Shown here piece by piece: positions 1,191 through 16,854 of a stretch of 64,000 bases of DNA. A program made the translations under genes and the position numbers. The notes under the pieces were generated by a model. That model saw only the letters and a program-made list of their open reading frames with translations, did no database searches and had not been told where the DNA came from. Position 1 is the first letter of the stretch. Every line of letters begins with the position of its first letter. This stretch comes from Candidatus Atribacteria bacterium UBA6251 (GTDB lineage: Bacteria > Atribacterota > Phoenicimicrobiia > Phoenicimicrobiales > Phoenicimicrobiaceae): NCBI GenBank assembly GCA_002441285.1, contig DJVR01000028.1, positions 2,910-66,909 of the forward strand. The letters are read 5' to 3'.

Positions 1191-1499
1191 GCAGAAAATA
1201 AGTTAGAGGAAAAATTTTCTAATTTAATAAAAAGAGATTAATTTATTAATTTAGCGTAGAAAGCGGAAAAATTAATACCTAAAATTTCTCGAGTTCAATT
1301 AATAATCATTGAGGCAGCTGCTCATTGTCCTATGGAGGCCCCATCCTAAGTTTTTAATCAATATCTTTTAAATTTTTTTAAAAAGAATAATCAAGCTTAT
1401 TGAATTTGTTTAATTTAACATAATGGTTAAAAAATGAAAAAATCTTAAAATTTAGTAAATAAAAGATTAGCCTGAAAAATAAATTTTTAGAGGAAAATA

Positions 1500-1931
1500 A
1501 TGGATAGTAAAAAAGAAAATATCAAAAATGAAATATGGAATTACTTTCAGAATTTTCAGTATGTATTTTTAGCTACTTCAGAAGGAGATCAACCCAGGGT
1601 GAGACCAGTTACCCTGATCCATCTGGCTCAGAGGTTCTGGGTAACTACGGGTACATACGATAAAAAGGTGGCTTAAATAAAAAAGAATCCCCGGATAGAG
1701 TTTTGTCTGCCGATTAAAAAAGGAGAAAAAGAAGGTTATATAAGAGGAACAGGCCGAGTAGAGATTAATGAAAACAGAGAGCAAAGAGAAAAGATTGCTC
1801 AAAATTGTGATTTTTTCTATGAATTCTGGAAAGGTCCTGATGATCCGAAATTTACCTTAATAGAAGTATTTTTAGAGGAGATTGAATGCCTAAAACCTGA
1901 TGAAACTATTGCTTACAGACTTAAATTATAA
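1500..1931 (+). pseudogene. Pyridoxamine 5'-phosphate oxidase (PPOX/general stress protein 26-like) family gene interrupted by one in-frame TAA
   Basis: ATG at 1500 gives MDSKKENIKNEIWNYFQNFQYVFLATSEGDQPRVRPVTLIHLAQRFWVTTGTYDKKVA, then TAA at 1674-1676. The same frame continues IKKNPRIEFCLPIKKGEKEGYIRGTGRVEINENREQREKIAQNCDFFYEFWKGPDDPKFTLIEVFLEEIECLKPDETIAYRLKL to TAA at 1929-1931. Both halves together look like one ~143-aa PPOX-like protein. Neither half is in the ORF track (the first is under 60 aa, the second has no start codon). Confidence 0.6.
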
Positions 1932-2069
1932 TCAGTATTTTTGGGAAAAGTATGGTCAAACTAAAAATATCTAAAAGATAAATTTATTTTTAAGGGATAT
2001 TATTTTAGAGATTATACTATGATTATAAATAGAATAATCAATAAAAGTTTAGATGGGAGGAAATTTTTT

Positions 2070-2873
2070 ATGAAAATATACATCAGTGCGGATCTGGAGG
2101 GAGTTACCGGAGCAACTCATTGGGATGAAACTGATAAGACTAAACCTGATTATCAATTCTTTGCTCAGCAGATGACTAAGGAGGTTAAGGCAGCCTGTGA
2201 AGGAGCAATAAAGGCAGGTGCAAAAGAAATTTGGATAAAAGATGCCCATGATACCGCCAGAAATATCTATGCAGATGAACTACCTACAATAGTAAAATTA
2301 ATTCGGGGATGGAGTGAGCATCCTTTTTCAATGGTTCAGGGATTGGATAAAACTTTTGATGCCTTATTAATGATTGGTTATCATTCTTACGGTAGTTCCG
2401 GGAGCAATCCTTTATCTCATACCTTAAGTTCTAAAAAGATAAATTACCTAAAATTAAATGGAGAAATAGCCAGCGAATTTTTAATTTACAGTTATATTGC
2501 TGCTAGTATGGAAATACCAGTAGTTTTTGTAAGTGGAGATGAAGGAATCTGTCTGGAAGCCAGGAAGCATATCCCAAATATCAGAACAGTAGCGGTTAAT
2601 CAAGGAATTGGTAATTCTACTATTAGTATTCATCCTAAACTTGCTCTAAAAAGAATAGAAGAGGAAGTTAATTCTGTTTTAAAAAGTAATTTCCAAAATT
2701 GTCAAATAAAATTACCAGAGCATTTTAAAGTTGAGCTATCTTTTAAAAAGCATACTCTGGCTTATCGATCGTCTTTTTATCCGGGAATGAAACAGATTTC
2801 CCCTACTGAGTTATGGTTTGAGACCAATAATTATTTTGATGTGTTGAGGATGCTATTATTCGTAATTTTATAA
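2070..2873 (+). CDS. dppA: D-aminopeptidase, peptidase family M55 (DppA-like)
   Basis: MKIYISADLEGVTGATHWDE... is the typical M55/DppA N-terminus. GGGAGG at 2055-2060 precedes the ATG at 2070, so I prefer that start over the listed 2019. Confidence 0.8.
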   Translation: MKIYISADLEGVTGATHWDETDKTKPDYQFFAQQMTKEVKAACEGAIKAGAKEIWIKDAHDTARNIYADELPTIVKLIRGWSEHPFSMVQGLDKTFDALLMIGYHSYGSSGSNPLSHTLSSKKINYLKLNGEIASEFLIYSYIAASMEIPVVFVSGDEGICLEARKHIPNIRTVAVNQGIGNSTISIHPKLALKRIEEEVNSVLKSNFQNCQIKLPEHFKVELSFKKHTLAYRSSFYPGMKQISPTELWFETNNYFDVLRMLLFVIL

Positions 2874-3047
2874 ATAGATTCGAGGATAAAAAATAAAAAA
2901 ATAGGTATTTTTTTGAATAAAAAGTATGTTGTGAACAAAAAATTTTATGTTATAATAAGAAAATTAATTTTTTACCGAATAAAACAATCAACAACCAATA
3001 AAATTAATTTACATAATCAACAAATCAAAATTCTATTTCCGTGAGGA

Positions 3048-3737
3048 TTGATAATGGAAGAAAGTTGGTTAGCTATTTATGAAGCTCTTCCTTATTTACT
3101 CAAAGGTTCTGCAGTAACTATAGGTTTAGTGGCAGGAGCTTTAGCCTTAGGCTTAATTTTGGGGATTCCTATGGCTATAAATCAGGTTTATGGTAATAAA
3201 TATATAAAAATAATCATCTCTTTTTATGTCTGGTTTTTTAGAGGAATCCCAGTTTTAGTCTTGTTATTTCTTTTTTATTTTGGTTTATTTGTTCTTTTAG
3301 GACTTGATTTATCTGCTTTTAAAGCCGGTATCCTGGTGTTGGGTTTAAGAAGCGCTGCTTATCAATCTCAAATCTTCAGGGGAAGTATTCAATCTTTAGG
3401 GGAAGGTCAAATGCTAGCCTCTTTATCTTTAGGGATGAGTAAAATTCAGGCTATCTGGAATATTATTTTACCACAAGCCATAAGAATTTCCTTACCTGGA
3501 TGGTCCAATGAGTATTCTATAATTTTAAAAGATTCTGCAGTTACTTATGCTATTGGTTTAATGGAAATAATGACTAGAGGTAAGTTTATTGCTACTAGAA
3601 CATTTAAACCGATGCCCATCTATCTAATCTGTGCTTTGATCTTTCTTATTTTAACTTACGGAGGAGTAAAATTACTCAGTGAACTGGAAAAAAAGGTTCG
3701 AATTCCTGGTTTTGGAAATAAAGGAGAGGGGAATTAG
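3048..3737 (+). CDS. Polar amino-acid ABC transporter permease (His/Glu/Gln/Arg/opine family)
   Basis: Multi-pass hydrophobic protein with the family EAA-loop region SLGMSKIQAIWNIILPQAIRISLPGWSNE. The start may be TTG 3048 or ATG 3054. Confidence 0.85.
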   Translation: MIMEESWLAIYEALPYLLKGSAVTIGLVAGALALGLILGIPMAINQVYGNKYIKIIISFYVWFFRGIPVLVLLFLFYFGLFVLLGLDLSAFKAGILVLGLRSAAYQSQIFRGSIQSLGEGQMLASLSLGMSKIQAIWNIILPQAIRISLPGWSNEYSIILKDSAVTYAIGLMEIMTRGKFIATRTFKPMPIYLICALIFLILTYGGVKLLSELEKKVRIPGFGNKGEGN

Positions 3738-3742
3738 ATAAA

Positions 3743-4513
3743 ATGCAAGAAGATCAACCTATAGTTTTGAAAATTGAGAATATTCACAAAAGATATGGAG
3801 AAACTGAGGTACTTAAGGGGGTATCTTTTACAGTAAAAAGGGGAGAAACCAAAGTTATTATTGGTCCTTCTGGTAGCGGAAAAAGTACCCTTTTGCGTTG
3901 TATTAATCAATTGACTATTCCTGACCAGGGAAGGGTTTGGTTGGAGGATGAAGAAGTAACTCATATTAAAAAGGATATCAATCTTTTTCGTCAGAAAATT
4001 GGTATGGTTTTTCAAGATTTTAATTTATTTGATCATTTAACGGCTCTTCGTAATGTAGAGATAGGATTGATAAAGGTAAAAGGTATGAATAAAAAACAGG
4101 CTCGGGAAAGGGCATACAATGAGCTCTTACGAGTGGGGTTGAAAGATCAAGCAAATTTATACCCGGCTCAACTTTCAGGGGGTCAAAAACAAAGAGTTTC
4201 TATCGCCCGAGCACTAGCTATGGATCCTAGTGTTATCCTTTTTGATGAACCTACTTCTGCTCTTGATCCAGAATTAATTGGTGAAGTTCTGGAGGTAATA
4301 AAGAATTTAGCTCTTAGTGGAATGACTATGGTAGTAGTAACTCACGAAATGGGATTTGCCCGTTCGGTAGCCAATGAAATAATCTTTATCGAAAATGGGA
4401 TGATCCTTGATCAGGGATCTCCTTATGACTTATTTATTAACCCAAAACATGAAAGAACTAAAAAGTTTCTCTATAAAATTACTGAATTATATGGAAAGTC
4501 AAAGGATGAATAA
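3743..4513 (+). CDS. Polar amino-acid ABC transporter ATP-binding protein (GlnQ/HisP-like)
   Basis: Walker A GPSGSGKST, signature LSGGQKQRVSIARAL, Walker B ILFDEPTSALD. The stop overlaps the next start (TAATG). Confidence 0.9.
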   Translation: MQEDQPIVLKIENIHKRYGETEVLKGVSFTVKRGETKVIIGPSGSGKSTLLRCINQLTIPDQGRVWLEDEEVTHIKKDINLFRQKIGMVFQDFNLFDHLTALRNVEIGLIKVKGMNKKQARERAYNELLRVGLKDQANLYPAQLSGGQKQRVSIARALAMDPSVILFDEPTSALDPELIGEVLEVIKNLALSGMTMVVVTHEMGFARSVANEIIFIENGMILDQGSPYDLFINPKHERTKKFLYKITELYGKSKDE

Positions 4514-5175
4514 TGGATAGTCTTGATTTTATTAAAGATATAGTTTTGCCACCGTTATTTGAAGGAACTCTGGTTACCTTAAAATTATTAGTCTTTTCCA
4601 TTCCTTTAGGTTTAGTCCTGGGGATTTTGATAGGTACTGGAAGGGTTTATGGAAATAGAATAATTTCTTTTTTATGTACAGTTTATACTATTTTTTTCCG
4701 AGGGACACCCTTATTAGTACAGCTTTTTGTAATTTATTATGGACTTCCTAGCTTGGGGATATATTTTTCTCCTTTTACTGCTGCGGTAATCGGTTTTGTG
4801 ATATGCAGCGCAGCTTATCATTCTGAATATATCAGAGGGGCCTTTTTATCGATTAAAAATGGTCAAATGATGGCAGCTCAAGCCTTAGGGATGAGTAGAA
4901 TGCAGGCAATTGTTAATATTATTTTCCCCCAAGCTATCAGAAGAGCTCTGCCTGGTTGTTCTAATGAAATTATTTATTTAGTGAAATATTCTTCTCTGGC
5001 TTTTATGGTTACTTGTGTAGAATTGACTGGGGCTGGCAAGATTGTAGCAACCCGTTATTTTAGATATACTGAAGTCTTTTTAGTAATAGGGGCTTTATAT
5101 TTAATAATGGTAACCATAGTTTCCAATTTACTTAAGGTAATGGAGAGAAGATTAAAAATTCCGGGATTAGGTTAG
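4513..5175 (+). CDS. Polar amino-acid ABC transporter permease (second subunit)
   Basis: Paralogue of 3048-3737 with ALGMSRMQAIVNIIFPQAIRRALPGCSNE. Translationally coupled to the ATPase gene. Confidence 0.85.
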   Translation: MDSLDFIKDIVLPPLFEGTLVTLKLLVFSIPLGLVLGILIGTGRVYGNRIISFLCTVYTIFFRGTPLLVQLFVIYYGLPSLGIYFSPFTAAVIGFVICSAAYHSEYIRGAFLSIKNGQMMAAQALGMSRMQAIVNIIFPQAIRRALPGCSNEIIYLVKYSSLAFMVTCVELTGAGKIVATRYFRYTEVFLVIGALYLIMVTIVSNLLKVMERRLKIPGLG

Positions 5176-5298
5176 TATAATATATGCTATAAAAACCTGA
5201 TCTAAATTGGAGAGGAAGGAAGGTGATGGTTAATTAAGAATTAATCTGGAATAATTTTACACATAAAGATTATACAAAAAAAGAAAGGAGAGAAAAAG

Positions 5299-6069
5299 AT
5301 GACAAAAAATAAAAGTAATTTATTAAAATTCGTGATAACCTTTACTATTATTTTCTTGATGTTGGGGATCATTATTAACCAGGCTCAGGAGAAAAAAGTT
5401 TATATTAATGGTATTGATCCTGATTTTCCACCTTTTGCTTATGTAGATAAGGATGGTAACCCAGCGGGATTTGATGTAGAGGCAGTAAACTGGATTGCTC
5501 AGGAAATGGGTTTTGAAGTTAAACATCAACCTACTGCCTGGGATACTATTATTCCTACTTTGAATGCCAAGAAGATTGATTTTATTGCTTCAGGTCTTTC
5601 GGTTACCGAAGAGAGGGCAAAAGTTATTGCTTATACTATCCCTTATTATGAACATAAATGGTCTTTAGTGGTTCGAGCTGATTCTGATTTGAATATAGTT
5701 ACCGGTCTAAGCCAGGGGCACACTGTTGGTGTTCAGAGAGGAACTACTGGAGCTAACTGGATTGAAGATAATCTGATAAAAAAGGGTGTAGATGTAAAGA
5801 TTAAAGTATATGATACCTTTACTTTAGCAATTGAGGATCTTTTAAATGGCAGAATAGATTCTGCAGTTCAAGATGATACTATGGTAAAAGAAATATTAGC
5901 AGCTAGAACAGGATTAAAGGAAGTAGGAACCTGGGGAACTGGAGAAGAAAAATATGCCTATGGAGTAAGGAAAGATGATACCGAGCTGTTAGAACTTTTA
6001 AATGAAGGCTTAAGAAGGATAATGGCTTCACCAAAGTGGAGCGAACTTAAAGCTAAGTATGGTATATAA
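5299..6069 (+). CDS. Amino-acid ABC transporter substrate-binding protein (family 3 SBP)
   Basis: N-terminal hydrophobic signal/anchor, then GIDPDFPPFAYVDKDGNPAGFDVE...IASGLSVTEERAK, typical of polar amino-acid binding proteins. Confidence 0.85.
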   Translation: MTKNKSNLLKFVITFTIIFLMLGIIINQAQEKKVYINGIDPDFPPFAYVDKDGNPAGFDVEAVNWIAQEMGFEVKHQPTAWDTIIPTLNAKKIDFIASGLSVTEERAKVIAYTIPYYEHKWSLVVRADSDLNIVTGLSQGHTVGVQRGTTGANWIEDNLIKKGVDVKIKVYDTFTLAIEDLLNGRIDSAVQDDTMVKEILAARTGLKEVGTWGTGEEKYAYGVRKDDTELLELLNEGLRRIMASPKWSELKAKYGI

Positions 6070-6095
6070 GTATAAGGTAAAACATTTAAATAATT

Positions 6096-6140
6096 CTGTG
6101 CTAAAGGTAAAGCAGAAGATTAGCTTTACCTTTAGCACAG
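6096..6140 (+). terminator. Strong hairpin after the ABC transporter operon (probable terminator)
   Basis: 18-bp perfect stem, CTGTGCTAAAGGTAAAGC (6096-6113) pairing with GCTTTACCTTTAGCACAG (6123-6140), with a 9-nt loop. No clean T-run follows, hence moderate confidence. Confidence 0.5.
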
Positions 6141-6231
6141 AAAAGTTAATCTATTTTATTAATTATTAGCATTAAAAAATTTATAGCTTGAAAGCATAAG
6201 GTATTTTCTCAAGTAAAGAGAGGAAGAGTCA

Positions 6232-7494
6232 ATGGTAAAAATTTCAATTCCTTATGGTAAAGAAAATATCACTATTTCTATCCCCAGAAAAAATTTATTA
6301 AAAGTCTGCCAATTAAAAGAAGTATCCGGAGTTAAAGATAACTTAAAAACCATTAAAGAAGCCCTACAAAACCCTATTGGTTCTCCCACTATTCCGGAAA
6401 TAGCCAGGGGGGAAAAATCCGCAGTAGTGATTTGTACTGATAATACTAGACCTACTCCTGACCAATATCTTATACCGCCGGTTTTAAATGAACTTAATAA
6501 AGGTGGGATATCTGATAAAGACATTAAAATTATTATTGCCCGAGGTCAGCACAGAAAGATGACTGACCAGGAAATTACCCAAAAAGTTGGATCAGAAATT
6601 CTTAAAAGGGTAAAAGTTGAACAGCATGATCCTGATCATAATCTTCATTACCTTGGTAAATCGAAAAGAGGCAATGAATTGTGGGTAAATAAAGAAGTGG
6701 TTCAGGCAGAAGTAAAGATATCTACCGGAAATATTGTTCCACATAGGTACGCTGGATATGGAGGAGGGGCTAAGAGTATTTTACCGGGCATCTCTTCAAG
6801 AGATACTATTGGATATAATCATCTTTATGTGGAGACTGGAGAGGCTGCCCTGGGCAAAACCGAAGGCAACCCCGTAAGAGAAGAGATGGAAGAGGCAGCA
6901 AAAATGATTGGGCTAGATATGATAGTAAATACCATTATGAATACCAGGGGTGAAATAGTAGAAGTGGTAGCAGGCAATCCACTTTTAGCTCATCAACATG
7001 GGATAAAAATAGTGAATAGCATTTATGGTACTCAAGTTCCAGAAAAAGCAGATATAGTAATAGCCAGTAGTTTTCCTATGGATATAAATTTCCATCAGGC
7101 CTCCAAGACTTTAGAAGCCATTGGTCATATCATTAAAGAAGACAGTATAATTATAATGCTATCTCCTTGTTATGAAGGAATAGGGGGAAAAGATTTTGTT
7201 GATTTCTTGAAAAAAGAAACTCCAGAGGAAATTATTGCTGAAATCAAAGCTCATAAAGAAAAGAATGTAGTATCGGGGATTATTTCATATTTAATAACTA
7301 AATGTAAGGAAAAAGCTAAAATTTATTTAAAGTCTGAAGGAATAAGTGATAAAGATATAAGGGAGATGGGATTTTATCCCATATATTCTGTGCAATCTAC
7401 CTTGGAAGAGAGTTTAAAAAATTATGGTGAAAAAGCTAAAGTTTTAATCTTTCCTACTGCTTCTATTACTCTTCCTTTATTACAAACAAAATAA
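6232..7494 (+). CDS. LarA-family (nickel-pincer cofactor dependent) 2-hydroxyacid racemase/epimerase homologue
   Basis: 420 aa that aligns by eye to Lactobacillus plantarum LarA: NPIGSPTIPEIARGEKSAVVICTDNTRPTP (LarA: NPIGSDKLEELARGKHNIVIISSDHTRPVP). The catalytic/cofactor positions are kept: RGQHRK (His108 region), PHRYAGYGGGAKSILPG (His174 and cofactor-tethering Lys184 region). Confidence 0.8.
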   Translation: MVKISIPYGKENITISIPRKNLLKVCQLKEVSGVKDNLKTIKEALQNPIGSPTIPEIARGEKSAVVICTDNTRPTPDQYLIPPVLNELNKGGISDKDIKIIIARGQHRKMTDQEITQKVGSEILKRVKVEQHDPDHNLHYLGKSKRGNELWVNKEVVQAEVKISTGNIVPHRYAGYGGGAKSILPGISSRDTIGYNHLYVETGEAALGKTEGNPVREEMEEAAKMIGLDMIVNTIMNTRGEIVEVVAGNPLLAHQHGIKIVNSIYGTQVPEKADIVIASSFPMDINFHQASKTLEAIGHIIKEDSIIIMLSPCYEGIGGKDFVDFLKKETPEEIIAEIKAHKEKNVVSGIISYLITKCKEKAKIYLKSEGISDKDIREMGFYPIYSVQSTLEESLKNYGEKAKVLIFPTASITLPLLQTK

Positions 7495-7622
7495 AAAGCA
7501 AAAGAAGTGAAAATTTTAAAATTAATAAATAAGATCGATGAAACCATTATCTTATTACTCATAGAAATTTTGCCTTTTAAGAGATGGAAAGAGACTTTTT
7601 GATTTAAAGGAGAGGTTATTAA

Positions 7623-8060
7623 TTGAAAGGAATTGGTTATTTCACTATTTCCCTGTTGCTATCTTCGGAATCAGAGGAAAAAGATTTAATTAAAAAACTA
7701 AAAGAGTTAGGCTATAAGGTAAGTCAGGGTAAGTCTGGAACTATGGATAGCAAAGAGTTAATTGCAGCTATCGAAACAACCGCTAAAAGAGAAGGAATTT
7801 TCCAGGCAGATTGTTATAGAGATGAACATGTAGTCTATCATACCGCTTTAAGTGCCTTGAGAGGATTTTGTAGAGGAGAAATTGGGATTGGAAACTTTTT
7901 GAGGACGATAGGGGTAAAATTTGTGGTATTAAGAGGTCCCATTGATATAACTCGAAGAAATTTAGGAGAATGGGTAGCGGTAGGTATTTATGGAATGGTA
8001 GGAGCACCAGTAAAAGGATTTGAACATGAAGCCATAGGTTTAGAGATTAATAGTATTTAA
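7623..8060 (+). CDS. hutP: HutP, histidine-responsive RNA-binding antiterminator
   Basis: 145 aa, collinear with B. subtilis HutP. Window: GTMDSKELIAAIETTAKREGI...YRDEHVVYHTALSALRGFCRGE...LRTIGVKFVVLRG...EWVAVGIYGMVGAPVKGFEHEAIGLEINSI. HutP: GSMDAHKVIAAIETASKKSGV...[22 protein letters not shown]...LRTVGLRFAVLRG...DWIAVSLYGTIGAPIKGLEHETFGVGINHI. TTG start with GGAGAGG RBS. Confidence 0.9.
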   Translation: MKGIGYFTISLLLSSESEEKDLIKKLKELGYKVSQGKSGTMDSKELIAAIETTAKREGIFQADCYRDEHVVYHTALSALRGFCRGEIGIGNFLRTIGVKFVVLRGPIDITRRNLGEWVAVGIYGMVGAPVKGFEHEAIGLEINSI

Positions 8061-8116
8061 TTTTTATATTTTTTGAAATAAATTTTGTGATCTATCAGAG
8101 ATAGTTATATAAATAC

Positions 8117-8146
8117 TTGGACTTATTAGTATAATAGTAGTATAAT
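8117..8146 (+). promoter_or_regulatory. Candidate sigma-70 type promoter in the hutP-iorA spacer
   Basis: TTGGAC (8117-8122), an 18-nt spacer, then TATAAT (8141-8146). Sequence match only, in very AT-rich DNA. Confidence 0.3.
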
Positions 8147-8262
8147 TTATTTAAAGATGATAAAAACACTTAAAGTAATTATTCCATAGATTGAATATCT
8201 TTATTTCATTTCAATAGAAATTTTGTTTGAGTAATAAAATAATTAAATATTTTATAAACCCA

Positions 8263-8286
8263 AAGACAATAGATGATAGGGGGTAG
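8263..8286 (+). promoter_or_regulatory. HutP binding site: four NAG triplets with exact 4-nt spacers
   Basis: AAG(8263-65)-acaa-TAG(8270-72)-atga-TAG(8277-79)-gggg-TAG(8284-86). UAG-N4-UAG-N4-UAG is the established HutP recognition pattern. The last two triplets lie in the 5' arm of the terminator stem. Confidence 0.75.
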
Positions 8287-8311
8287 TTAATAATTACCTC
8301 CTATTTTTTTT
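8276..8311 (+). terminator. Intrinsic terminator (HutP-controlled attenuator) upstream of iorA
   Basis: Stem 8276-8285 (ATAGGGGGTA) pairs with 8295-8304 (TACCTCCTAT). It is 10 bp with one G-U pair and a 9-nt loop, followed by a run of 8 T (8304-8311). It lies 45 nt upstream of the iorA start. Confidence 0.8.
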
Positions 8312-8355
8312 ACTATGATTATTTTTTAAAGATTATTTAATAAGGAGGTGTAAAC

Positions 8356-10254
8356 TTGAAGAGGTTACTCACCGGAAATGAAGCAATTGCCGAGGGGGTT
8401 ATTGAATCGGGGGTGGAAGTAATTACTGGTTATCCTGGCACTCCTTCTTCAGAAGTTATTCTTAACTTAAAATCTATGCAAAATAAAGCAGATTTCAGGC
8501 CTCAGCATATTGAATGGAGCATAAATGAAAAAGTGGCTCTTGAGATAGCAGCGGGAGCTGCCTGGGCAGGTAAAAGGGCGTTGGTTACTATGAAGATGTC
8601 GGGATTAAATGTAGCTGCTGATTCTCTGGTTTCTATTGCATATAGTGGATGTAGGGGAGGATTAGTAATTTTTGTGGCCGATGATCCAGGAGCTCATGCT
8701 GGTATGGCAGAACAGGATTCCCGTCATTATGCCAGATTAATGATTATCCCGATGCTGGATTTAGCCTCCCAGCAAGAAGGTCTGGATTATATGAAGTTAG
8801 CCTTTGAATTATCAGAAAAGATTGGTGGACCTATCTTTTTAAGGTCAACCACAGATATTTCCCACGTAGCTTCCGATGTAGAAATAGGGAATAGACTTAA
8901 TTTAGAAAAAAGAGAAATATTTCTGGAAAAAGACATCACTAGGTATACGAAAGCAGCCTCTTCCTGGTGTATAGCTCAACATAAAGACGCAATTAATCGT
9001 TTAAAGCAAGCTTTAGATTACACAGATAATTATCTTTCCGAGCATGGCATAAGGGTAAATGAGATGTCCTTGGATGAGAAGATTAAAGAGGGGGTAATTT
9101 ATTCTGGAGCGGTAGAAGGTAATTTTAAAGAAGCCATCAAAAGATACAATTTAAAACTTTCCTGGTTAAAGATTGGTTTAATACATCCCTTGCCAGAAGA
9201 AAGAATTAAGAGATTTTTGGAAAAAGTTGAACGGGTACTTATCTTAGAAGAGCTGGATCCATTTATTGAAACAGAAGTAAGAAGAATTGCATCTCAAATG
9301 AATAAATCGGTAGATATCTGGGGGAAATTTAATAAAGATTTTTTACCCTGGGTAGGTGGATATTCCTTCCGGGAAATAAAAAAGGGACTGGAAACCTTTT
9401 TGGGAAAAGTGTTTGAATCTGAACAGGATTCCAGGATTAGATTAAAAGCAAAAGAAATAGAAGTAAAACGCACTACCTCTTTTTGTGTCGGCTGTCCTCA
9501 CCGGGGAGCCTATTTTGCCCTCAATAAAGCTATTAAAAAATTAAAATATAAAAAGGATGAAATAATTATTACTGGAGATATTGGATGTACTATTTTAGGA
9601 ATGAATAAACCTTTTGAATCTTGCTGGACAGAGATAGCTATGGGAGCAAGTATAGGTTTGGCTCAAGGGTTTAAGTGGGCGGGCATAGAAAAACCAGTAA
9701 TAGCTACCATTGGAGATTCTACTTTTTTCCATGCTGGTATCCCTCCTTTGATTAACGCAATTTATCAGAAAGTACCCTTAACTGTTATTATTTTAGATAA
9801 TGGTTGGACTGCTATGACTGGTTTTGAAGAAAATCCAGGCACCCTTGCTTTCGACAATAAAGAAGACACCAAAAGAGTAGATATTAGGGAAATTTGCCAG
9901 GGTTGTGGAGTAGAAGATCTAAAAGTAATTGATCCTTATAAACCAGAGGAAGCAATAAATACCATTATAAAGGCGATTAAATATCCAGGTGTTTCTGTGG
10001 TATTATCCCGACAGGAATGTGCCTTACAAGCAAAGAGAAGGAAAGTAAATTTTGCGAAATATAGAGTGGATATAAAAAAGTGTACCGGTTGCCGGGTGTG
10101 CCTAAATTCTGTAGGGTGTCCAGCGATGGTATTTCACCCGGCAGAGGAGAAAGGAAGACCATATATGGAAATTACCATGGATTGTTTTGGTTGTGGAATA
10201 TGTAAATTCGACTGTCCAACTGGGGCAATAGAGGAGATAAAAGATGGAAAATAA
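8356..10254 (+). CDS. iorA: Indolepyruvate:ferredoxin oxidoreductase, alpha subunit (TPP-binding, C-terminal 2x[4Fe-4S])
   Basis: 632 aa. N-terminus LLTGNEAIAEGVIESGVEVITGYPGTPSSEV; TPP region GDIGCT...GDSTFFHAG; C-terminal CTGCRVCLNSVGCP...CFGCGICKFDCP. RBS AAGGAGGTG before the TTG start. Confidence 0.9.
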   Translation: MKRLLTGNEAIAEGVIESGVEVITGYPGTPSSEVILNLKSMQNKADFRPQHIEWSINEKVALEIAAGAAWAGKRALVTMKMSGLNVAADSLVSIAYSGCRGGLVIFVADDPGAHAGMAEQDSRHYARLMIIPMLDLASQQEGLDYMKLAFELSEKIGGPIFLRSTTDISHVASDVEIGNRLNLEKREIFLEKDITRYTKAASSWCIAQHKDAINRLKQALDYTDNYLSEHGIRVNEMSLDEKIKEGVIYSGAVEGNFKEAIKRYNLKLSWLKIGLIHPLPEERIKRFLEKVERVLILEELDPFIETEVRRIASQMNKSVDIWGKFNKDFLPWVGGYSFREIKKGLETFLGKVFESEQDSRIRLKAKEIEVKRTTSFCVGCPHRGAYFALNKAIKKLKYKKDEIIITGDIGCTILGMNKPFESCWTEIAMGASIGLAQGFKWAGIEKPVIATIGDSTFFHAGIPPLINAIYQKVPLTVIILDNGWTAMTGFEENPGTLAFDNKEDTKRVDIREICQGCGVEDLKVIDPYKPEEAINTIIKAIKYPGVSVVLSRQECALQAKRRKVNFAKYRVDIKKCTGCRVCLNSVGCPAMVFHPAEEKGRPYMEITMDCFGCGICKFDCPTGAIEEIKDGK

Positions 10255-10831
10255 TTTTTATATCACTGGAGTAGGGGGACAAGGAGTAGTGCGTTTGGGC
10301 CAAATTCTGGCTCTTTATGGATTAGAAAAGGGTAAAAAGGTCAGATTTTATAAACAGGTAGGAATGGCTCAAAGGGGTGGTCCAGTTCATTGTGAGGTAA
10401 GGATAGGCGAGGTTTTTGGATCGAGAATTCCTCCTCTTTCGGCAGATATAGTTGTAGTTATGGAATTGGCTGAAGGCTTGAAAGCTTTAGAATTTGTAAA
10501 ACCAGGAGGTATGGTGATACTAAACAGAAAAAAGATATATCCACTTGATTTAATGGCTTATCCGGATCAATACCCTCCAGAAGAAGAGATTATCCAATTG
10601 TTTAAAGAAGTTGGAGCTAAGATCTTCTGGATAGAGGCAGATAGAATAACCCAAGAAATTAATCTTCCTTTAGCTGAGAATATTATTATATTGGGAGTCA
10701 TCGCCAATTTTTTATCTTTAGATAAGAGTATTTTATTAAATTTATTAGAAAAAAATGTACTTGGTTCATTTTTAACAAAAAACCTGGAAGCTTTTGAGAG
10801 AGGTTTTCAGTGGGCAGAGGAAATGAAATAA
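10244..10831 (+). CDS. iorB: Indolepyruvate:ferredoxin oxidoreductase, beta subunit
   Basis: 195 aa with ITGVGGQGVV..., typical of the IorB/gamma-type OFOR domain. Overlaps the iorA end by 11 nt. Confidence 0.85.
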   Translation: MENNFYITGVGGQGVVRLGQILALYGLEKGKKVRFYKQVGMAQRGGPVHCEVRIGEVFGSRIPPLSADIVVVMELAEGLKALEFVKPGGMVILNRKKIYPLDLMAYPDQYPPEEEIIQLFKEVGAKIFWIEADRITQEINLPLAENIIILGVIANFLSLDKSILLNLLEKNVLGSFLTKNLEAFERGFQWAEEMK

Positions 10832-10832
10832 T

Positions 10833-12179
10833 ATGAAAGATAGTATTCCTAATTTTTTTAATCCTAAAACAGTAGCTATTTTTGGTTCTATGAAAGAAGG
10901 CAAAACTGGATATGAAATTGTGAGGAATATGTTAGAAGGTGGCTTTAAGGGAGGGATATACCCAATAAGCCAGACTAATGGTAAAATTTTGGGATTAAAA
11001 ACATTTTCAGATTTTAAGAATTTATCTATTGATTTAGCCATTATAGCCATTCCTGGTTCTTTTATTCCTGTTCTTTTAGAAGATTTGGGAAAACAAAATG
11101 TTTCATCAGTGGTAATAATATCAGCAGGATTTTCTGAGGTAGGTAATTTAAAAGAAGAAGAAGAATTACTTACTATTGCCCGAAAATATCAAATCAGAAT
11201 CATTGGGCCAAATTGTGCTGGAATTATGAATACCAGCAATAATCTTTTTGCCAGTATAGAAGTGCGTGCTCTACCCGGTAATACCGCTTTTATTACTCAA
11301 AGTGGAGCCCTGGGGGGTGCAGTTTTAATGATGGCTGAGGAATTAGGTTTTGGTTTTTCTAAATTTGTAAGTTATGGAAATAGATGTGATGTAGATGAAG
11401 CAGATTTAATCGATTATTTACGAGATGATTCAGAAACCAGAGTAATCGCTATCTATATCGAAGCTTTAGCAGAGGGGAAAAAATTTTTATCAAAAATAAA
11501 GACAACGGTATCTAAGAAACCAATTATTGCCATTAAAGCAGGTAAATTTAAAGCTGGGAAAAGAGCTACCTCTTCCCACACCGGTTCTTTAGCGGGAGAA
11601 GATAGAATTTATGAAGCAGCTTTTAGACAATTTGGAATTTTAAGGGTTGAAGATATAGAAGAGATGTTTGATTTGTGTAGAGGTTTAGAATATTATCCCC
11701 GAATTAACGGTAAAAGAATTGCCATAATAACTAATGCGGGGGGTCCTGCAGTAATGACCACGGATAAATTAGAAGAATTAGGTTTAGAAGTACCGGAACC
11801 TTCTGGTTCTTTAATTAAAACTTTGAAAGGTTTACTCCCTCCTAATGTTTCTTTGAAGAATCCTTTTGATCTTTTGGCTTATGGTAGTGCAGATACTTTT
11901 ACTCAAGTAGGAGAGACTATTGCTCCAGAATATGATGCCCTTATAATTATTTTTGTACCTACCGCTTCGATGGATTCGGTGAAAATTGCCCAGGCAGTGG
12001 GAGAAATAAAGAAGAAGATTAATAAACCAATTTTTACCAGTTTTATGGCTGGAAGATTAGTAAAAAAAGGGATTGAAGAATTAAAAAAATATGGTATCCC
12101 TAACTACTCTACGGGAGAAAGGTGTGCTAGGGTCATTCAGAAGATAGTCTGGCATACTTTAAAAAATAATCCAAAATAG
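10833..12179 (+). CDS. acdA: ADP-forming acyl-CoA synthetase (acetate-CoA ligase, ADP-forming), alpha subunit
   Basis: 448 aa. FFNPKTVAIFGSMKEGKTGYEIVRNM (CoA-binding domain), IIGPNCAGIMN, and SHTGSLAG around the phosphohistidine loop. Confidence 0.85.
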   Translation: MKDSIPNFFNPKTVAIFGSMKEGKTGYEIVRNMLEGGFKGGIYPISQTNGKILGLKTFSDFKNLSIDLAIIAIPGSFIPVLLEDLGKQNVSSVVIISAGFSEVGNLKEEEELLTIARKYQIRIIGPNCAGIMNTSNNLFASIEVRALPGNTAFITQSGALGGAVLMMAEELGFGFSKFVSYGNRCDVDEADLIDYLRDDSETRVIAIYIEALAEGKKFLSKIKTTVSKKPIIAIKAGKFKAGKRATSSHTGSLAGEDRIYEAAFRQFGILRVEDIEEMFDLCRGLEYYPRINGKRIAIITNAGGPAVMTTDKLEELGLEVPEPSGSLIKTLKGLLPPNVSLKNPFDLLAYGSADTFTQVGETIAPEYDALIIIFVPTASMDSVKIAQAVGEIKKKINKPIFTSFMAGRLVKKGIEELKKYGIPNYSTGERCARVIQKIVWHTLKNNPK

Positions 12180-12360: not shown

Positions 12361-13041
12361 ATGCATAGAATCTTACAAAAAGCAAAAGAAGAAAAAAGAT
12401 CTTTATTAGAAATAGAAGCTAAAGAATTACTAAGAGAATATGGAATTCCTGTACCAAATTATAAATTAGTAAGAAGTAAAGACCAGATTAGAGGGTTAAG
12501 TGAAGAAATACCCTTTCCAATAGTAATGAAAATTGTATCTCCCCAAATTATACACAAATCAGAGTCTGGAGGAGTAAAAATAAACATAAAGGACGAGCAG
12601 GAAGCTAGATTAGCTTATCAAGAAATAATAGAAAATGTCAAAAGATATAATCATCATGCCAGGGTTGCCGGGGTAATAGTATATTCTTTTATTCCAAAAC
12701 AAACTGAAGTTATTATTGGGATGATGAAAGATCCTCATTTTGGACCAGTTATTATGTTTGGATTAGGGGGAATATACGTAGAAGTATTGAAAGATATTTC
12801 TTTTCGTATTATCCCTATCAAAGAAAAAGATGCTCGGGAGATGATTACTGAAATTAAAGGTTTTGAAATTTTAAAAGGAATAAGAGGAGAACCCTCGCGA
12901 GATATCCAGATATTAGAAGATATATTAATAAAAGTTTCTCATTTGGTGGAAGAAAATCCGGAGATTAAAGAGTTAGATTTAAATCCTATTTTTGTTTTTG
13001 AAAAAGGTGCTCAGGTGATCGATGCTCGAATGATTTTATAA
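12361..13041 (+). CDS. acdB: ADP-forming acyl-CoA synthetase, beta subunit (ATP-grasp)
   Basis: 226 aa. LLEIEAKELLREYGIPVPNYKLV...VMKIVSPQIIHKSESGGVKINI...LDLNPIF is the canonical AcdB pattern. The start at 12361 directly follows an in-frame TAG, and the RBS is weak. Confidence 0.8.
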   Translation: MHRILQKAKEEKRSLLEIEAKELLREYGIPVPNYKLVRSKDQIRGLSEEIPFPIVMKIVSPQIIHKSESGGVKINIKDEQEARLAYQEIIENVKRYNHHARVAGVIVYSFIPKQTEVIIGMMKDPHFGPVIMFGLGGIYVEVLKDISFRIIPIKEKDAREMITEIKGFEILKGIRGEPSRDIQILEDILIKVSHLVEENPEIKELDLNPIFVFEKGAQVIDARMIL

Positions 13042-13089: not shown

Positions 13090-15474
13090 GTGGTTAAATT
13101 GGAGAAAGAACAATATGATTTTATTGGCCAACCTCTAGAAATAAAAAATATCGGTAAGGTTACTGGTAAAGAATTATATTCTTCAGATATAAATATTCCC
13201 GGTCAGTTATATGCAGTCATCTTGAGAAGCCCACATGCTCATGCTGAGATTAAAAAAGTAGATTATAGCGAAGCAGTAAAGGTGGGAGCAGTATGTATTG
13301 GTCCCCAAGATGTGCCTGAGATAATTTATAATGAAAGAATAGTGAGTATTCCTGAGAAGACTTATCGAGACAGAACTGTTCTACCTAAGGAAAAAGTCCG
13401 CCATAAAGGGGAAGCATTGGTAGCTTGTGCTGCTGAAACTGAAGAGAAAGCCTGGGCTGCCTTGCAAAAGATAAAAATAGAATGGGGAAAACAGTGGAAA
13501 CCGCTTCTTACTTTGGAAAAAGCTTTATCAGACGATGCTCCTCCTATCTATGATTGGGTCTATTTAGGTGAAGAAAAATTAAAGGTGAAAAATAATATTG
13601 CCTGCGAGAGAAATATTGAGGTGGGAGATGTGGAGGAAGGTTTTCGAGAAGCAGATATTGTGATAGAAAAAACTTTTCATACTCAAAGAGTCTATCATAT
13701 GCAATTTGAGACCAAATCAGCAGTATGTGTTCCGGAAGCGGATGGAGGAATAACTGTCTGGACTACTTCTCAGGGGATTCATAATGTCCGCATTTTGTTA
13801 GGAAATATTTTTAATCTTCCTTTAAGTAAAATAAATATAAAAAGAATAACTCTGGGAGGCTCCTTTGGCTCAAGCATTCAGATGAATTCTATTACTCCTA
13901 TCTGTGTAGCTTTAGCTTTAAAGGCTAAGAAGCCGGTAAAGTTAGTATCTTCCAGGGAAGATGATTTCTATGACCATGCCAAATACCCCTTAAAAACTAT
14001 TTTAAAAGTGGGGGTTAAAAAGGATGGTACTTTTACCGCTGCTCATTGCCGGGTCTGGGTGGAGATTGGTGGTCATAACATTCAGGCTTATCCTTATTTA
14101 GGATGTGTGGCAGGTTGGTTTGCTTCTCTTTATAAGTGGAAGAATATAAAATATGAAGGTACTGCAGTCTATACCAATAAAGTACCAACCTGTGCTATGC
14201 AAGGGTATGGTAACCCTCAGATTAATTTTGCCGTAGAAAGTATGATTGATATATTAGCAGAAGAATTGAAAATGGACCCCATTAATCTGCGCTTGAAGAA
14301 TTATGTAGGGAAAGGAGACGAATTCTGGGGGCAAGGACCTACCGTTAGATCTATTATCAGAAGTTGTGGAGTTGAAGAGATGCTACTGGAAGGAGCAAAA
14401 CTTGCTCAGTGGGAAAAGAGAGTCCCTCATTACCAGAAAAAAGAAGTTATCAGAAAAGGTATGGGAGTAGCTCGAGGGTTCCATACTTCAGGGACAGGAG
14501 GTCCTAATCCTGGTGAAGTAATTGATTACTCCGGAGCAACTATTAAAATAAATGAAGATGGTTCAGTGGATGTATTAACTGCCCTAATGGATCTTGGAGG
14601 AGGCACCTGGGATGCCTTAGCTAAAATAGTGGCAGAAGTTTTAAAGGTACCTTTTGAAAAGATTGGTATTTATAATGGGATAGATACTCGTTCAACCGTT
14701 TTTGATGTTAATACCCATGCTACACGAGGGGTATATTGTGGAGGAGGAGCAGTAAAGTTTGTTGCTGAGAAGGTCAAGGAGATACTTCTGAATTATGCTG
14801 CCACTTTATTTAAAGATTTACCTGAGAATTTAGTATTATCCTGTAATAAAGAATTGGGGCAAGCTATAATATATCCTCGAGAGATACCAGAAAATTATAA
14901 GACTATAGGGGAGATAGCAGAATATGCTCATACTACCAGCTGGGGTACCTTGGCTTATACTTCTACTCTTCGGCAGAAAAACTGTCCTCCCTGTTTTATT
15001 ACACACTTTGTTGAAGTGGAAGTGAATACCCGGACTGGAGAAGTTAAGATTCCACGAGTGGTGATTATGGGTGATTCGGGAACGATTATTAATCCAAATT
15101 TATGGGAAGGGCAAATCATAGGAGCTTTTAGCAGAGGTCTGGGTTTTGGTCTTTTAGAAGAGACTGATTATCATCCTGAAGATGGGAGTTTAAGATGTAA
15201 AGGATTAGTAACTGATTATAAGATTCCTACTACTTTAGAAATGCCAAAAATAGAAGATATTATAGTACGTTCTGCTCATACTTATGAACCTACTGGTCCT
15301 TTTGGAGCCAAGGGGATAGGAGAAGCAGCTTTAAGTTCGGTAGGACCTGCAATAGCTAATGCTATCTATAATGCTATTGGAATCAGGTTTTATGAATTGC
15401 CTATTACTCCAGAAAAAATCTTAAAATCCCTCCAGGAGAAAGAGGAAAATCTCAGAAAAAGGAGAGGTGAATAG
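13090..15474 (+). CDS. Xanthine dehydrogenase-family molybdopterin-binding large subunit (set 1)
   Basis: 794 aa. N-terminal Ald_Xan_dh-type region (GKELYSSDINIPGQLYAVILRSPHAHAEI), GGSFGS motif, C-terminal GPFGAKGIGEAAL. Start is GTG 13090, or possibly TTG 13099. Confidence 0.85.
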   Translation: MVKLEKEQYDFIGQPLEIKNIGKVTGKELYSSDINIPGQLYAVILRSPHAHAEIKKVDYSEAVKVGAVCIGPQDVPEIIYNERIVSIPEKTYRDRTVLPKEKVRHKGEALVACAAETEEKAWAALQKIKIEWGKQWKPLLTLEKALSDDAPPIYDWVYLGEEKLKVKNNIACERNIEVGDVEEGFREADIVIEKTFHTQRVYHMQFETKSAVCVPEADGGITVWTTSQGIHNVRILLGNIFNLPLSKINIKRITLGGSFGSSIQMNSITPICVALALKAKKPVKLVSSREDDFYDHAKYPLKTILKVGVKKDGTFTAAHCRVWVEIGGHNIQAYPYLGCVAGWFASLYKWKNIKYEGTAVYTNKVPTCAMQGYGNPQINFAVESMIDILAEELKMDPINLRLKNYVGKGDEFWGQGPTVRSIIRSCGVEEMLLEGAKLAQWEKRVPHYQKKEVIRKGMGVARGFHTSGTGGPNPGEVIDYSGATIKINEDGSVDVLTALMDLGGGTWDALAKIVAEVLKVPFEKIGIYNGIDTRSTVFDVNTHATRGVYCGGGAVKFVAEKVKEILLNYAATLFKDLPENLVLSCNKELGQAIIYPREIPENYKTIGEIAEYAHTTSWGTLAYTSTLRQKNCPPCFITHFVEVEVNTRTGEVKIPRVVIMGDSGTIINPNLWEGQIIGAFSRGLGFGLLEETDYHPEDGSLRCKGLVTDYKIPTTLEMPKIEDIIVRSAHTYEPTGPFGAKGIGEAALSSVGPAIANAIYNAIGIRFYELPITPEKILKSLQEKEENLRKRRGE

Positions 15475-15476
15475 CA

Positions 15477-16367
15477 TTGCATAATACCAGATTTTTAACT
15501 CAAGAATTTGAATATTTTGTTCCCCATACTTTATCTGAGGCTTTAGATTTACTCTTTACTTATCAAGATAAAAGGACTAAGATATTAGCAGGAGGAACAG
15601 ATCTACTAGTGAAAATGAAGACCCTGGGGATAGGAGTAGATTATTTAATTAATATTAATGAAATTTCTGAGATAAAGAATGTAGAGTTGGATAAAGGCTT
15701 AAAGATTGGAGCAGCAGTCAAACTTTCTCAATTAGAGAAGATGAAAGCAGTAAAGGAAGAATATCCTGCTTTATATGAGGGAATTACCTCAATGGCAGCA
15801 ATAGCTATCCGAAATATGGCTACTCTGGTTGGCAATATTTGCAATGCTTCTCCAGCTGGGGACACTATTCCTCCCTTAGTGGTATATGGGGCAAAGTTAA
15901 GGATAGTCAGTAAAAAAGGAGAACGAGTTATTCCGCTTGAAGATTTTATTAGCGGGGTTGGAGAGACTATACTTAAAAGAGATGAATTAGTGAGTCAGGT
16001 AATAATTCCTGAACCTTATAAAGATTTGGGAAGTGCATTTTGTAAAAAAGGCAGAGTAAAAGCTGATATTGCCAAAATAAATCTGGCTGTAGGTATAGAA
16101 AGAGATGGTGATATTTGTCGAGACTGCCGGATAGTGCTGGGCTCGGTTTTTAGTAAAACCCTACGAGCATATAAATCAGAAGAAATTCTTAGAGGAAAAG
16201 TGATAAAGGATGATTTAATTATTTCTGCAGCCAAAAGAGCTGCCGAAGAGATTAAGCCTATCGATGATGTACGTTCTACAGCTGAATATAGAAATGAATT
16301 AGCCCGGGTAATGGTGGAAGATACTTTACACATAGCCTGGGAAAGAGCGGGTGGTAAGAGGTGGTAA
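15477..16367 (+). CDS. Xanthine dehydrogenase-family FAD-binding medium subunit (set 1, CoxM/XdhB-like)
   Basis: 296 aa. FEYFVPHTLSEALDLL...ILAGGTDLLVKMK...ATLVGNICNASPAGD, and C-terminal DDVRSTAEYR. Confidence 0.85.
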   Translation: MHNTRFLTQEFEYFVPHTLSEALDLLFTYQDKRTKILAGGTDLLVKMKTLGIGVDYLININEISEIKNVELDKGLKIGAAVKLSQLEKMKAVKEEYPALYEGITSMAAIAIRNMATLVGNICNASPAGDTIPPLVVYGAKLRIVSKKGERVIPLEDFISGVGETILKRDELVSQVIIPEPYKDLGSAFCKKGRVKADIAKINLAVGIERDGDICRDCRIVLGSVFSKTLRAYKSEEILRGKVIKDDLIISAAKRAAEEIKPIDDVRSTAEYRNELARVMVEDTLHIAWERAGGKRW

Positions 16368-16368
16368 G

Positions 16369-16854
16369 ATGAAGAAGATGGAAATAGAATTTATTCTTAA
16401 TGGTAAAAAAAGGAAAATAGAAGTAAAACCAAATGACCTTTTAATTAATATTATTAGAGAAGATTTATACCTTACCGGTACAAAATATGGTTGTGGACTT
16501 GGAGAATGCGGAGTTTGTACAGTTTTATTAAATGGTGAACCAGTTCTCTCCTGTCTAACCCTAGCTATAACTGTTGATGGTAAAGAAATTACTACCATCG
16601 AAGGATTAGCTCAGGGCGATGAATTGCATCCTTTACAGAAAGCATTTTTGAAAAATGGGGCTGTACAATGTGGTTTTTGTACACCGGGAATGATATTGAC
16701 GGCCACTGCATTATTAAGAGAAAATCCTGATGCTACCGAAGATGAGATCAGAAATTATATGAGAGGTAATCTTTGTCGGTGTACTGGATATGTGCAAATT
16801 ATAAAAGCAATCAAAGAATGTACCTCTATAAAAAATAAGGGATTAACAAACTGA
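16369..16854 (+). CDS. Xanthine dehydrogenase-family [2Fe-2S] small subunit (set 1, CoxS-like)
   Basis: GCGLGECGVCTV...CL and QCGFCTPGMI...NLCRCTGY are the two 2Fe-2S cluster motifs. I prefer ATG 16369 (just after the previous stop) over the listed 16351. Confidence 0.85.
   Translation: MKKMEIEFILNGKKRKIEVKPNDLLINIIREDLYLTGTKYGCGLGECGVCTVLLNGEPVLSCLTLAITVDGKEITTIEGLAQGDELHPLQKAFLKNGAVQCGFCTPGMILTATALLRENPDATEDEIRNYMRGNLCRCTGYVQIIKAIKECTSIKNKGLTN

Follow-up and report, generated by a model that had tools for sequence, protein, structure and literature searches.

The closest described counterpart of the system reported here is the hutPHUIGM operon of Bacillus subtilis, in whose leader site I places UAG triplets at U498, U505 and U512 and site II, 12-20 nt downstream, is required in vivo (PMC2425495). 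In the published model HutP rolls from site I to site II and melts a G-C stem, and a 21-mer RNA follows a 'triangular' path on the protein (PMC2425495). The model as given in two sources (PMC2425495 section 19; PMC12591593 section 27) has no antiterminator helix; these do not extend to the earlier papers of Oda and colleagues, where a similar pairing is possible. The second source, a 2025 review, gives HutP for Bacillus hut operons only (PMC12591593). TRAP, which acts on the trp leader, is likewise an amino-acid-activated oligomer that reads repeated (G/U)AG triplets, in a leader capable of alternative structures (PMC2425495), but it is an 11-mer of another fold, its target has 2-3 nt spacers and its binding promotes termination.

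Here we present a HutP-type leader from a different phylum, placed in front of a different operon. It lies in a 64,000-nt stretch of Candidatus Atribacteria bacterium UBA6251 (contig DJVR01000028.1), the whole of which we call the window, between hutP and genes for an indolepyruvate-type ferredoxin oxidoreductase (IOR; iorAB), an ADP-forming acyl-CoA synthetase (ACD; acdAB) and two xanthine dehydrogenase (XDH)-family molybdenum (Mo) hydroxylases. The leader is very likely a HutP-dependent antiterminator for the ior-acd operon. While the protein belongs to a known family and both the triplet code and the logic of the terminator have been described before, the cargo and the phylum are new, as are a one-site architecture found throughout a clade and a covarying helix, P1, that is present in Bacillota leaders too. 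Our literature search found nothing that joins HutP to either Atribacter or indolepyruvate, nor Atribacter to words beginning in urocan.

Anatomy and conservation of the leader

The initial annotation, made from the DNA letters and their translations, had named the first gene of the system a hutP homologue, and three libraries agree on the family: the product scores 81.2 bits against Pfam PF09021 (cutoff 25) and 158.2 bits against the NCBIfam HutP equivalog NF002838 (cutoff 155), and matches the PDB chains of B. subtilis HutP (1wmq/1vea) at E = 1e-38, with 46% identity to the B. subtilis protein. The spacer between hutP and iorA measures 295 nt and holds the following elements downstream of the gene.

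7623-8060, + strand: hutP, HutP-family RNA-binding antiterminator of 145 aa; TTG start, strong Shine-Dalgarno sequence
8118-8146, + strand: promoter-like TGGACT-17-TATAAT between hutP and the leader; consensus scan, 10/12 matches
8258-8261, + strand: P1 5′ strand ACCC, pairing with 8281-8284
8263-8279, + strand: predicted HutP site of three NAG triplets (AAG-N4-TAG-N4-TAG), within the P1 loop (8262-8280)
8275-8311, + strand: intrinsic terminator, hairpin 8275-8305 (14 pairs, loop of 3) plus T8 at 8304-8311
8281-8284, + strand: P1 3′ strand GGGT, shared with the terminator 5′ arm
8284-8286, + strand: fourth TAG, specific to the window; TGA or GAG in relatives

Four triplets had been proposed as the HutP target. 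All four are in place (AAG 8263-8265, TAG 8270-8272, TAG 8277-8279 and TAG 8284-8286), every spacer is 4 nt long, and the window holds 4 occurrences of TAG-N4-TAG-N4-TAG where 0.92 are expected; the fourth triplet, however, is not conserved in relatives and falls outside the conserved core. The terminator predicted behind the triplets is borne out, with a hairpin minimum free energy of −16.8 kcal/mol (ViennaRNA). An Rfam scan of the window returned no family at the leader, its only match being a lysine riboswitch elsewhere.

To place this leader among its relatives, one genome per GTDB species was scanned, yielding 80 HutP loci (L001-L080). Twelve of them (L001-L012) are mostly labelled Atribacterota and encode HutPs of 63-82% identity to that of the window, the range also seen with proteins of Atribacterota metagenome-assembled genomes (MAGs); the other 68 (L013-L080) are Bacillota at 41-50% identity. 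A metagenome scan added 80 loci of the same HutP clade, and contigs L081-L086 were obtained by exact protein look-up. Related loci were covered at 20 kb each, and reference proteins were mapped onto all of them. A separate protein search gave 158 HutP relatives, of which the best 120 are 66-100% identical, nearly all metagenomic and a few labelled Atribacteria.

A covariance model, R1, was built from 14 clade leaders and searched over the window and 77 loci. It finds a single match in the window (8255-8310, 66 bits, E ~7e-12) and also matches Bacillota leaders, each directly 5′ of hutH. Relatives show the site as CCCA-NAG-N4-TAG-N4-NAG-GGGG, with a hairpin and then a T-run behind it. Across 72 distinct clade leaders the first triplet begins with A, T, G or C, the second is TAG in 71 and the third begins with T, G or A: the conserved HutP site, as read from these alignments, is three triplets and not four. 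Covariation in 14 relatives supports the terminator helix (88.7% of cells paired, 5 pairs changed on both sides), including the third triplet, whose variable N changes in step with its partner in the terminator 3′ arm (UA 7, GC 3, AU 1).

The B. subtilis logic that the initial annotation had recognized holds down to the flanks. B. subtilis-group hut leaders among our loci read CCCA-TAG-N4-TAG-N4-TAG-GGGGC before the terminator, so that the clade leader has the same core as site I, flanks CCCA/GGGG included, where the terminator stem begins on its 5′ side; in both, hutP precedes the terminator. The clade differs in having no site II and, in most relatives, a separate promoter between hutP and the leader. 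Two in-phase downstream NAGs occur in 0 of the 72 leaders, the longest in-phase run being 0 in 52 and 1 in 20, and the window has its single extra TAG; the single cluster seen at first sight is thus a property of the clade. A second NAG cluster near the leader was rejected, since none lies in 8150-8258, the loop or the 3′ arm, nor in the 72 relatives. Most relatives carry an extended −10 element (TGTTATAAT) about 20 nt 5′ of CCCA, leaving no space for an upstream triplet cluster; with the element so placed, the switch of these relatives forms the 5′ end of the regulated transcript. Near that position the only candidate in the window is a weak TAGAAA-17-AATAAT (8215-8243), and its match at 8118-8146 is on its own not above shuffle expectation.

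Around the triplets runs a second pairing, P1, which the initial annotation had missed. The 4 nt just 5′ of A-NAG1 pair with the 4 nt starting two bases past the third triplet, in the window enclosing a 19-nt loop with the three conserved triplets. In alignment A3, which holds 59 leaders from two phyla, pair 4:39 is GC 21, AU 19 and GU 6; pair 5:38 is CG 52; pair 6:37 is CG 39, UA 16 and AU 1; and pair 8:36 is CG 45, UA 9 and UG 2. For P1, 60 cells carry changes in both partners; shuffles give 19.8 ± 6.1 and no slid register exceeds 20. The alignment was not fitted to the helix, because P1 is absent from R1. Many related leaders are close kin, so cell counts overstate independent events and the argument rests on the cross-phylum pattern and on nine distinct fully paired tetramer combinations. 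Seven are strictly Watson-Crick (ACCC/GGGT, GCCC/GGGC, GCCT/AGGC, ACTC/GAGT, GCTC/GAGC, TCCT/AGGA, GCAC/GTGC) and two contain a G-U pair (GCCC/GGGT, ACTT/GAGT). Within the clade, P1 is paired at 4/4 positions in 56 of 72 leaders and ACCT/AGGT occurs five times. The complementarity is also found in Bacillus, as AGCCC/GGGCT.

P1 accounts for the invariant CCCA and for five invariant Gs whose terminator partners vary between C and U. As its 3′ strand lies within the terminator 5′ arm, P1 and the terminator are mutually exclusive. Folding of the leader with and without constraints agrees: the free RNA forms the terminator, keeping the footprint 8263-8279 single-stranded leaves a surviving hairpin of −8.4 kcal/mol, and with P1 enforced no hairpin remains, P1 alone contributing −3.5 kcal/mol.

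As a separate observation, in the B. subtilis group (L046-L068, about 10425-10510) GCCCATA 5′ of site I is complementary to TATGGGC just past the terminator T-run. This long-range pairing is Bacillus-specific and absent in Atribacterota.

Cargo of the clade and candidate ligands

In the Atribacterota-type clade, hutP followed by iorA or hisC and not by hutH is the rule, and in our sample it is confined to that clade. The initial annotation had seen HutP beside non-hut catabolic genes at one locus; none of the 92 clade loci (0/12 genome, 0/80 metagenome) has hut genes beside hutP, versus hutH, hutU or hutI in 60 of the 68 Bacillota loci. Five of the remaining 8 Bacillota loci are on contigs below 6 kb, and the 60 hut-carrying ones hold neither iorA nor acd. 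Among the Atribacterota genome loci, 5 of 12 have iorA, iorB or acd. The first gene 3′ of the leader, taken over 59 leaders with at least 600 nt following, is HisC-like in 20, iorA in 10, a second hutP in 3 and unassigned, meaning without a match in the reference protein set, in 26; a HisC-family gene is present in 25 of the 59 operons. Ten open reading frames (ORFs) annotated from unassigned operons comprise 7 of ABC transporters of several families, 2 dimethyl sulfoxide (DMSO)-reductase-family molybdoenzymes and 1 HisD-family gene. At L092 (4318-6396) and L122 (970-3048), the first gene after the HutP leader encodes a 693-aa DMSO-reductase-family molybdopterin oxidoreductase.

Gene order varies within this frame. 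After hutP and the leader, L081 has hisC-like, iorA, iorB, acdA, acdB and hisD-like genes; L082 and L083 have a Liv-type ABC transporter, DUF6282, an aminotransferase, iorAB and acdA; L085 has a hisC-like gene, an Opp-type ABC transporter and others; and L086 has a hisC-like gene, a Liv-type ABC transporter and an amidohydrolase. L084 has the order of the window, and L005 runs leader-ABC-LarA-IorA, with the window's upstream genes placed 3′ of the leader. Where the B. subtilis cargo is hutHUIG, that of the clade is iorAB-acdAB with or without HisC-, HisD-, LarA-like and Mo-hydroxylase genes. Because a whole clade of another phylum uses it on a different operon, the HutP system is portable and its regulon is not fixed.

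Genes in the window next to the switch are as follows.

3048-6069, + strand: polar-amino-acid ABC transporter, upstream of hutP (Pfam, NCBIfam)
6232-7494, + strand: LarA-like 2-hydroxyacid racemase, upstream of hutP (Pfam, NCBIfam)
8356-10254, + strand: iorA; Pfam POR_N, TPP_enzyme_C, Fer4 and POR across iorA/iorB
10244-10831, + strand: iorB; with iorA an indolepyruvate-type 2-oxoacid:ferredoxin oxidoreductase
10833-12179, + strand: acdA; with acdB ADP-forming acyl-CoA synthetase alpha/beta; CoA_binding_2, Succ_CoA_lig, ATP-grasp_5
12361-13041, + strand: acdB, ADP-forming acyl-CoA synthetase
13090-16854, + strand: XDH-family molybdenum hydroxylase 1; Mo, FAD and 2Fe-2S subunits (Pfam)
16867-20915, + strand: XDH-family molybdenum hydroxylase 2; FAD 16867-17739, 2Fe-2S 18005-18481, Mo subunit 18612-20915

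At the level of domains, Pfam agrees with the genes named behind the terminator. IorA scores 626.9 bits against TIGR03336 (IOR_alpha), just below the cutoff of 650.9, and the two-subunit domain architecture fits; ACD scores 456 bits against TIGR02717, below the cutoff of 567, and does not reach the acetate-specific equivalog cutoffs. Equally, the reported absence of hut enzymes holds: tblastn with proteins from a B. subtilis-group locus found no hutH, hutU, hutI, hutG or hutM in the 64 kb, and Pfam annotation of most other window ORFs gave no hut enzyme.

The HutP protein itself bears on the ligand. The B. subtilis hexamer needs both L-histidine and Mg2+ in order to bind RNA. We aligned 69 hut-linked Bacillota and 133 clade sequences (B. 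subtilis numbering). Y69, H73, H77, R88, R98, E137 and H138, the presumed ligands of Mg2+ and of the amino-acid backbone, do not vary in either group, and the window protein keeps His73, His77, His138, Arg88, Arg98 and Tyr69 in common with B. subtilis. Judged from these residues, the effector has very probably remained an L-alpha-amino acid, with a divalent metal bound alongside it. Other positions separate the groups. Position 81, on the same helix as H77 and H73 at i+4 and i+8 from them and presumably an imidazole contact, is E/D in 69/69 hut-linked Bacillota and N 98, S 25 and D 7 among the 133 clade members, the window having Ser in place of the acidic residue; position 144 is G in 69/69 and E/D in 133/133; the window protein has Ser77 and Glu141 at these two positions; position 84 changes from H to K/R; and several hydrophobic core positions are also group-specific. 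The changes at 81 and 144 mean that ligand specificity may have shifted, although binding of imidazole would remain feasible with an amide or hydroxyl at 81 and a newly acidic residue at 144.

Side by side with these comparisons we note tandem hutP pairs or leaders 5′ of hutP itself at L103 (2429-3582), L146, L152, L104 (190-247) and L112 (9332-9388), which suggest paralogous regulators or autoregulation.

As ligand or substrate we lean, on sequence evidence, towards histidine or a related imidazole compound. In L081 the hisC equivalog gives 350 bits for the aminotransferase (cutoff 277), and the operon ends in a gene that clears the hisD equivalog with 474 bits (cutoff 244). HisD-family genes recur in six further clade operons, after a Peripla_BP_4-type ABC transporter, and in L106 and L110, where contigs are long enough, they are followed by larA-like and iorAB genes. 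The transporter of the window falls into the polar type (His/Glu/Gln/Arg), and the Lys/Arg/Orn(/His) subfamily is the one nearest to its binding protein. Two Pelotomaculum loci tie the 2-oxo/2-hydroxy-acid branch to a histidine context: in both (L041 10485-12975, L057 10480-11639) a D-2-hydroxyacid dehydrogenase gene follows a HutP leader, in L041 with a LarA-like racemase next in line, and hutI/hutU are close by on the other strand.

An aromatic amino acid (Trp, Phe, Tyr), or a 2-oxo or 2-hydroxy acid, would be the ligand of the same switch if the cargo turned arylpyruvate into arylacetyl-CoA and then arylacetate plus ATP, with the Mo hydroxylases acting on, for example, indoleacetate. We hold this alternative fairly unlikely. 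HisC-family enzymes are often aromatic aminotransferases, and Mo-dependent hydroxylation of indoleacetate reportedly occurs in Aromatoleum; IorA is nearest the indolepyruvate oxidoreductase equivalog, the positions facing the side chain have shifted (81, 144 and 84), and some clade operons have Liv-type or Opp-type transporters. On the other hand, the recurrent HisD-family genes, the polar type of the window transporter (His/Lys/Arg/Gln), the unchanged RNA site and metal/backbone ligand residues, and the Pelotomaculum dehydrogenase and LarA module under a HutP leader beside hutI/hutU all speak for the histidine side.

The cargo would convert an amino acid to a 2-oxoacid (a HisC-family enzyme in relatives), then to an acyl-CoA (IOR) and finally to an acid plus ATP (ACD). 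For histidine the route would run through imidazolepyruvate and imidazoleacetyl-CoA to imidazoleacetate plus ATP; it has indirect support from the HisC-family first genes, the recurring HisD-family genes and the linked polar-amino-acid ABC transporter. Thermococcales combine an aminotransferase, IOR/KOR and ADP-forming acyl-CoA synthetases (ACS) in the same enzyme trio with the same ATP-yielding logic. Their ACS isoenzymes are active on histidine-derived imidazole-4-acetate, TK2127 / P. furiosus ACS4 being specific for it and setting a precedent for histidine to imidazoleacetate via a CoA ester, and the imidazolepyruvate oxidoreductase is unassigned there (PMC3942289). They differ in being archaeal and free of HutP control; the locus described here, whose enzyme substrates are putative, adds selenium (Se)-dependent Mo hydroxylases.

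More tentatively still, Atribacterota may carry out a fermentation of histidine or imidazole compounds that would be new to bacteria, joining HisC-like, IOR and ATP-yielding ACD steps to imidazoleacetate with attack on the ring by two Se-dependent Mo hydroxylases, under a one-site HutP switch; the odds are rather against so complete a picture. Ring hydroxylation could open a way towards a product of the hydantoin or N-carbamoyl-aspartate type. By its cargo the operon suggests that histidine-like compounds enter a transaminase/IOR/ACD route; it offers candidate substrates for orphan Se-dependent Mo hydroxylases, and it bears on amino-acid use in sediments by Atribacterota, a phylum abundant in the deep subsurface.

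The proposed switch and its alternatives

A HutP-type antitermination switch with a different cargo is in our judgement the likely best explanation of the locus as a whole. Transcription of the leader would begin at a promoter in the hutP-iorA spacer. Unless prevented, the terminator (8275-8305 plus T8) would fold and transcription would end before iorA; without HutP, P1 would be too weak and the terminator would win. A HutP hexamer loaded with ligand and Mg2+ would bind with one face to the three NAG triplets at 8263-8279, holding the ends of the site together, so that P1 could form once G8281-U8284 leave the polymerase and ahead of the 3′ arm (8291-8305). P1 would take four G-rich nucleotides of the terminator 5′ arm, of which the third triplet is the base; the terminator could not nucleate, and polymerase would read through into iorAB-acdAB and probably the molybdoenzyme genes. 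A single triplet cluster would be used, with no role for a site II. The triangle would be closed by a base, a base pair and a base in place of a fourth 4-nt spacer, which would fit the published 21-mer path.

The proposed principle, a protein stabilizing a weak RNA structure that excludes the terminator 5′ arm, resembles the BglG/SacY/LicT-RAT and ANTAR systems. These differ in having unrelated folds and a structured hairpin as target, whereas HutP would use three single-stranded NAG triplets in a large loop closed by about 4 bp. P1 covariation across two phyla suggests that HutP clamps an antiterminator loop, and on balance we think that P1 is a working antiterminator helix. One-site leaders cannot use the published two-site mechanism, since site II is absent, and would represent a natural minimal version of the HutP switch. 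P1 thereby offers a concrete mutational hypothesis, B. subtilis included; if true, clamping of P1 by HutP everywhere, in B. subtilis as well, would revise the two-site melting model.

Several points count against this interpretation. P1 has only 4 bp, and the published B. subtilis model does without it and requires site II in vivo (PMC2425495). The window and its operon lack an aminotransferase gene, and gaps of 181, 265 and 130 nt interrupt the block from iorA to the molybdoenzymes, so that co-transcription of the latter is putative. For histidine in particular, the altered positions 81 and 144, the nearest match of IorA and the frequent aromatic activity of HisC-family enzymes all pull the other way.

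If HutP acted by plain occlusion or by melting, in keeping with the published B. subtilis model, P1 would have no function and its covariation would reflect another constraint. The model's lack of an antiterminator helix, the third triplet's position already inside the terminator stem and the −3.5 kcal/mol of P1 favour such a course. We nonetheless find it unlikely: unpairing the footprint alone leaves the −8.4 kcal/mol hairpin and the U-rich tract, the clade is without the site II that this model needs, the constraint on the 4 nt before the first triplet has no other account, and five Gs are invariant where their terminator partners vary between C and U. That the hairpin is a constitutive hutP terminator, with vestigial or chance triplets and iorA transcribed from its own unregulated promoter, is very improbable. 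The terminator does sit 3′ of hutP, and L002 holds at 6106-6155 a decayed leader copy that keeps triplets and hairpin and has lost the T-run. However, the relatives' extended −10 between hutP and the site makes the element a 5′ leader of the downstream operon, the triplets, P1 and the terminator are kept in 72 leaders regardless of the first downstream gene, and leaders are found 5′ of hutP or apart from it (L104, L112 and L002 at 13219). Least credible is a biosynthetic or salvage direction, from aryl- or imidazoleacetate through acyl-CoA and 2-oxoacid to an amino acid via HisC with HutP unrelated: IOR and ACD are reversible and serve aromatic amino-acid synthesis in some anaerobes, and hisC-like and hisD-like genes are of biosynthetic families, but an amino-acid-activated switch would be senseless for the synthesis of that amino acid, and uptake transporters and catabolic-type Mo hydroxylases occur in the same operons.

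Molybdenum hydroxylases, heptamer arrays and a lysine riboswitch

Two further features lie within or beyond the molybdoenzyme genes.

17742-17772, + strand: four TAG-N4 units and an AAG in a 7-nt register, right after the FAD-subunit stop codon
20928-26663, + strand: Se-dependent Mo-hydroxylase maturation set; YqeC, MocA, YqeB, XdhC, YedE selenium transporter, SclA-like lyase

In the maturation set, NCBIfam gives YqeC 160.8 bits (cutoff 73), YqeB 368 (cutoff 220) and YedE 491 (cutoff 200); the SclA-like gene scores 492 bits against the cysteine desulfurase family TIGR01977 (cutoff 377) and 399 against the SclA model, below 525. With three-subunit XDH-family enzymes and YqeB, YqeC, YedE, XdhC and MocA, the window resembles known Se-dependent Mo hydroxylases of the purine hydroxylase, xanthine dehydrogenase and nicotinate dehydrogenase types. 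It differs in that both large subunits score under every equivalog cutoff, the best NCBIfam matches of hydroxylase 1 being XdhA-type, and in that the enzymes are joined to an IOR/ACD operon with a HutP leader, a combination for which our literature search found no paper. Mo hydroxylases are present in some operons only (the window, L011, L084 and L148), and the gene order of hydroxylase 1 is kept in the other three.

Another association of a Mo hydroxylase with a HutP locus is seen in a Bacillota MAG, where XDH-family large, FAD and 2Fe-2S genes lie directly 5′ of leader-hutH-hutP (L026 1-6782). In L084, the stretch 5′ of hutP (1264-9802) holds AllH/AllF/AllG-like, CoA-transferase, cyclase, CN-hydrolase and amidohydrolase genes, a neighbourhood of N-heterocycle or ureide breakdown.

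The array at 17742-17772 was, like P1, missed by the initial annotation. We set it aside as an unproven second HutP target. Neither a terminator nor a stable fold (z = +1.35) is present in the 265-nt gap that holds it, and neither the R1 search nor Tandem Repeats Finder (TRF) calls it. Conservation is lacking too: in L011 a Mo-subunit gene like the window's second follows the first 2Fe-2S gene after about 100 nt, with the second FAD and 2Fe-2S genes missing between, and in L084 only 50 nt separate the latter two. It also resembles the intergenic TAGTGAA/TAGTCGT-like arrays of 3-6 copies found in Atribacterota (L081 201-233, 1616-1640 and 15529-15553; L084 14457-14477), which in L081 adjoin unrelated genes, are often followed by GC-rich hairpins and have ideal HutP periodicity. 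The array is probably a dispersed heptamer repeat. The acdA-acdB gap of the window has neither a leader nor a TAG array.

The lysine riboswitch found by the Rfam scan (RF00168, 118.6 bits) lies at 49855-50030, 5′ of a saccharopine-dehydrogenase-like ORF (50205-51458), and a second ORF of this kind is found at 48589-49740.

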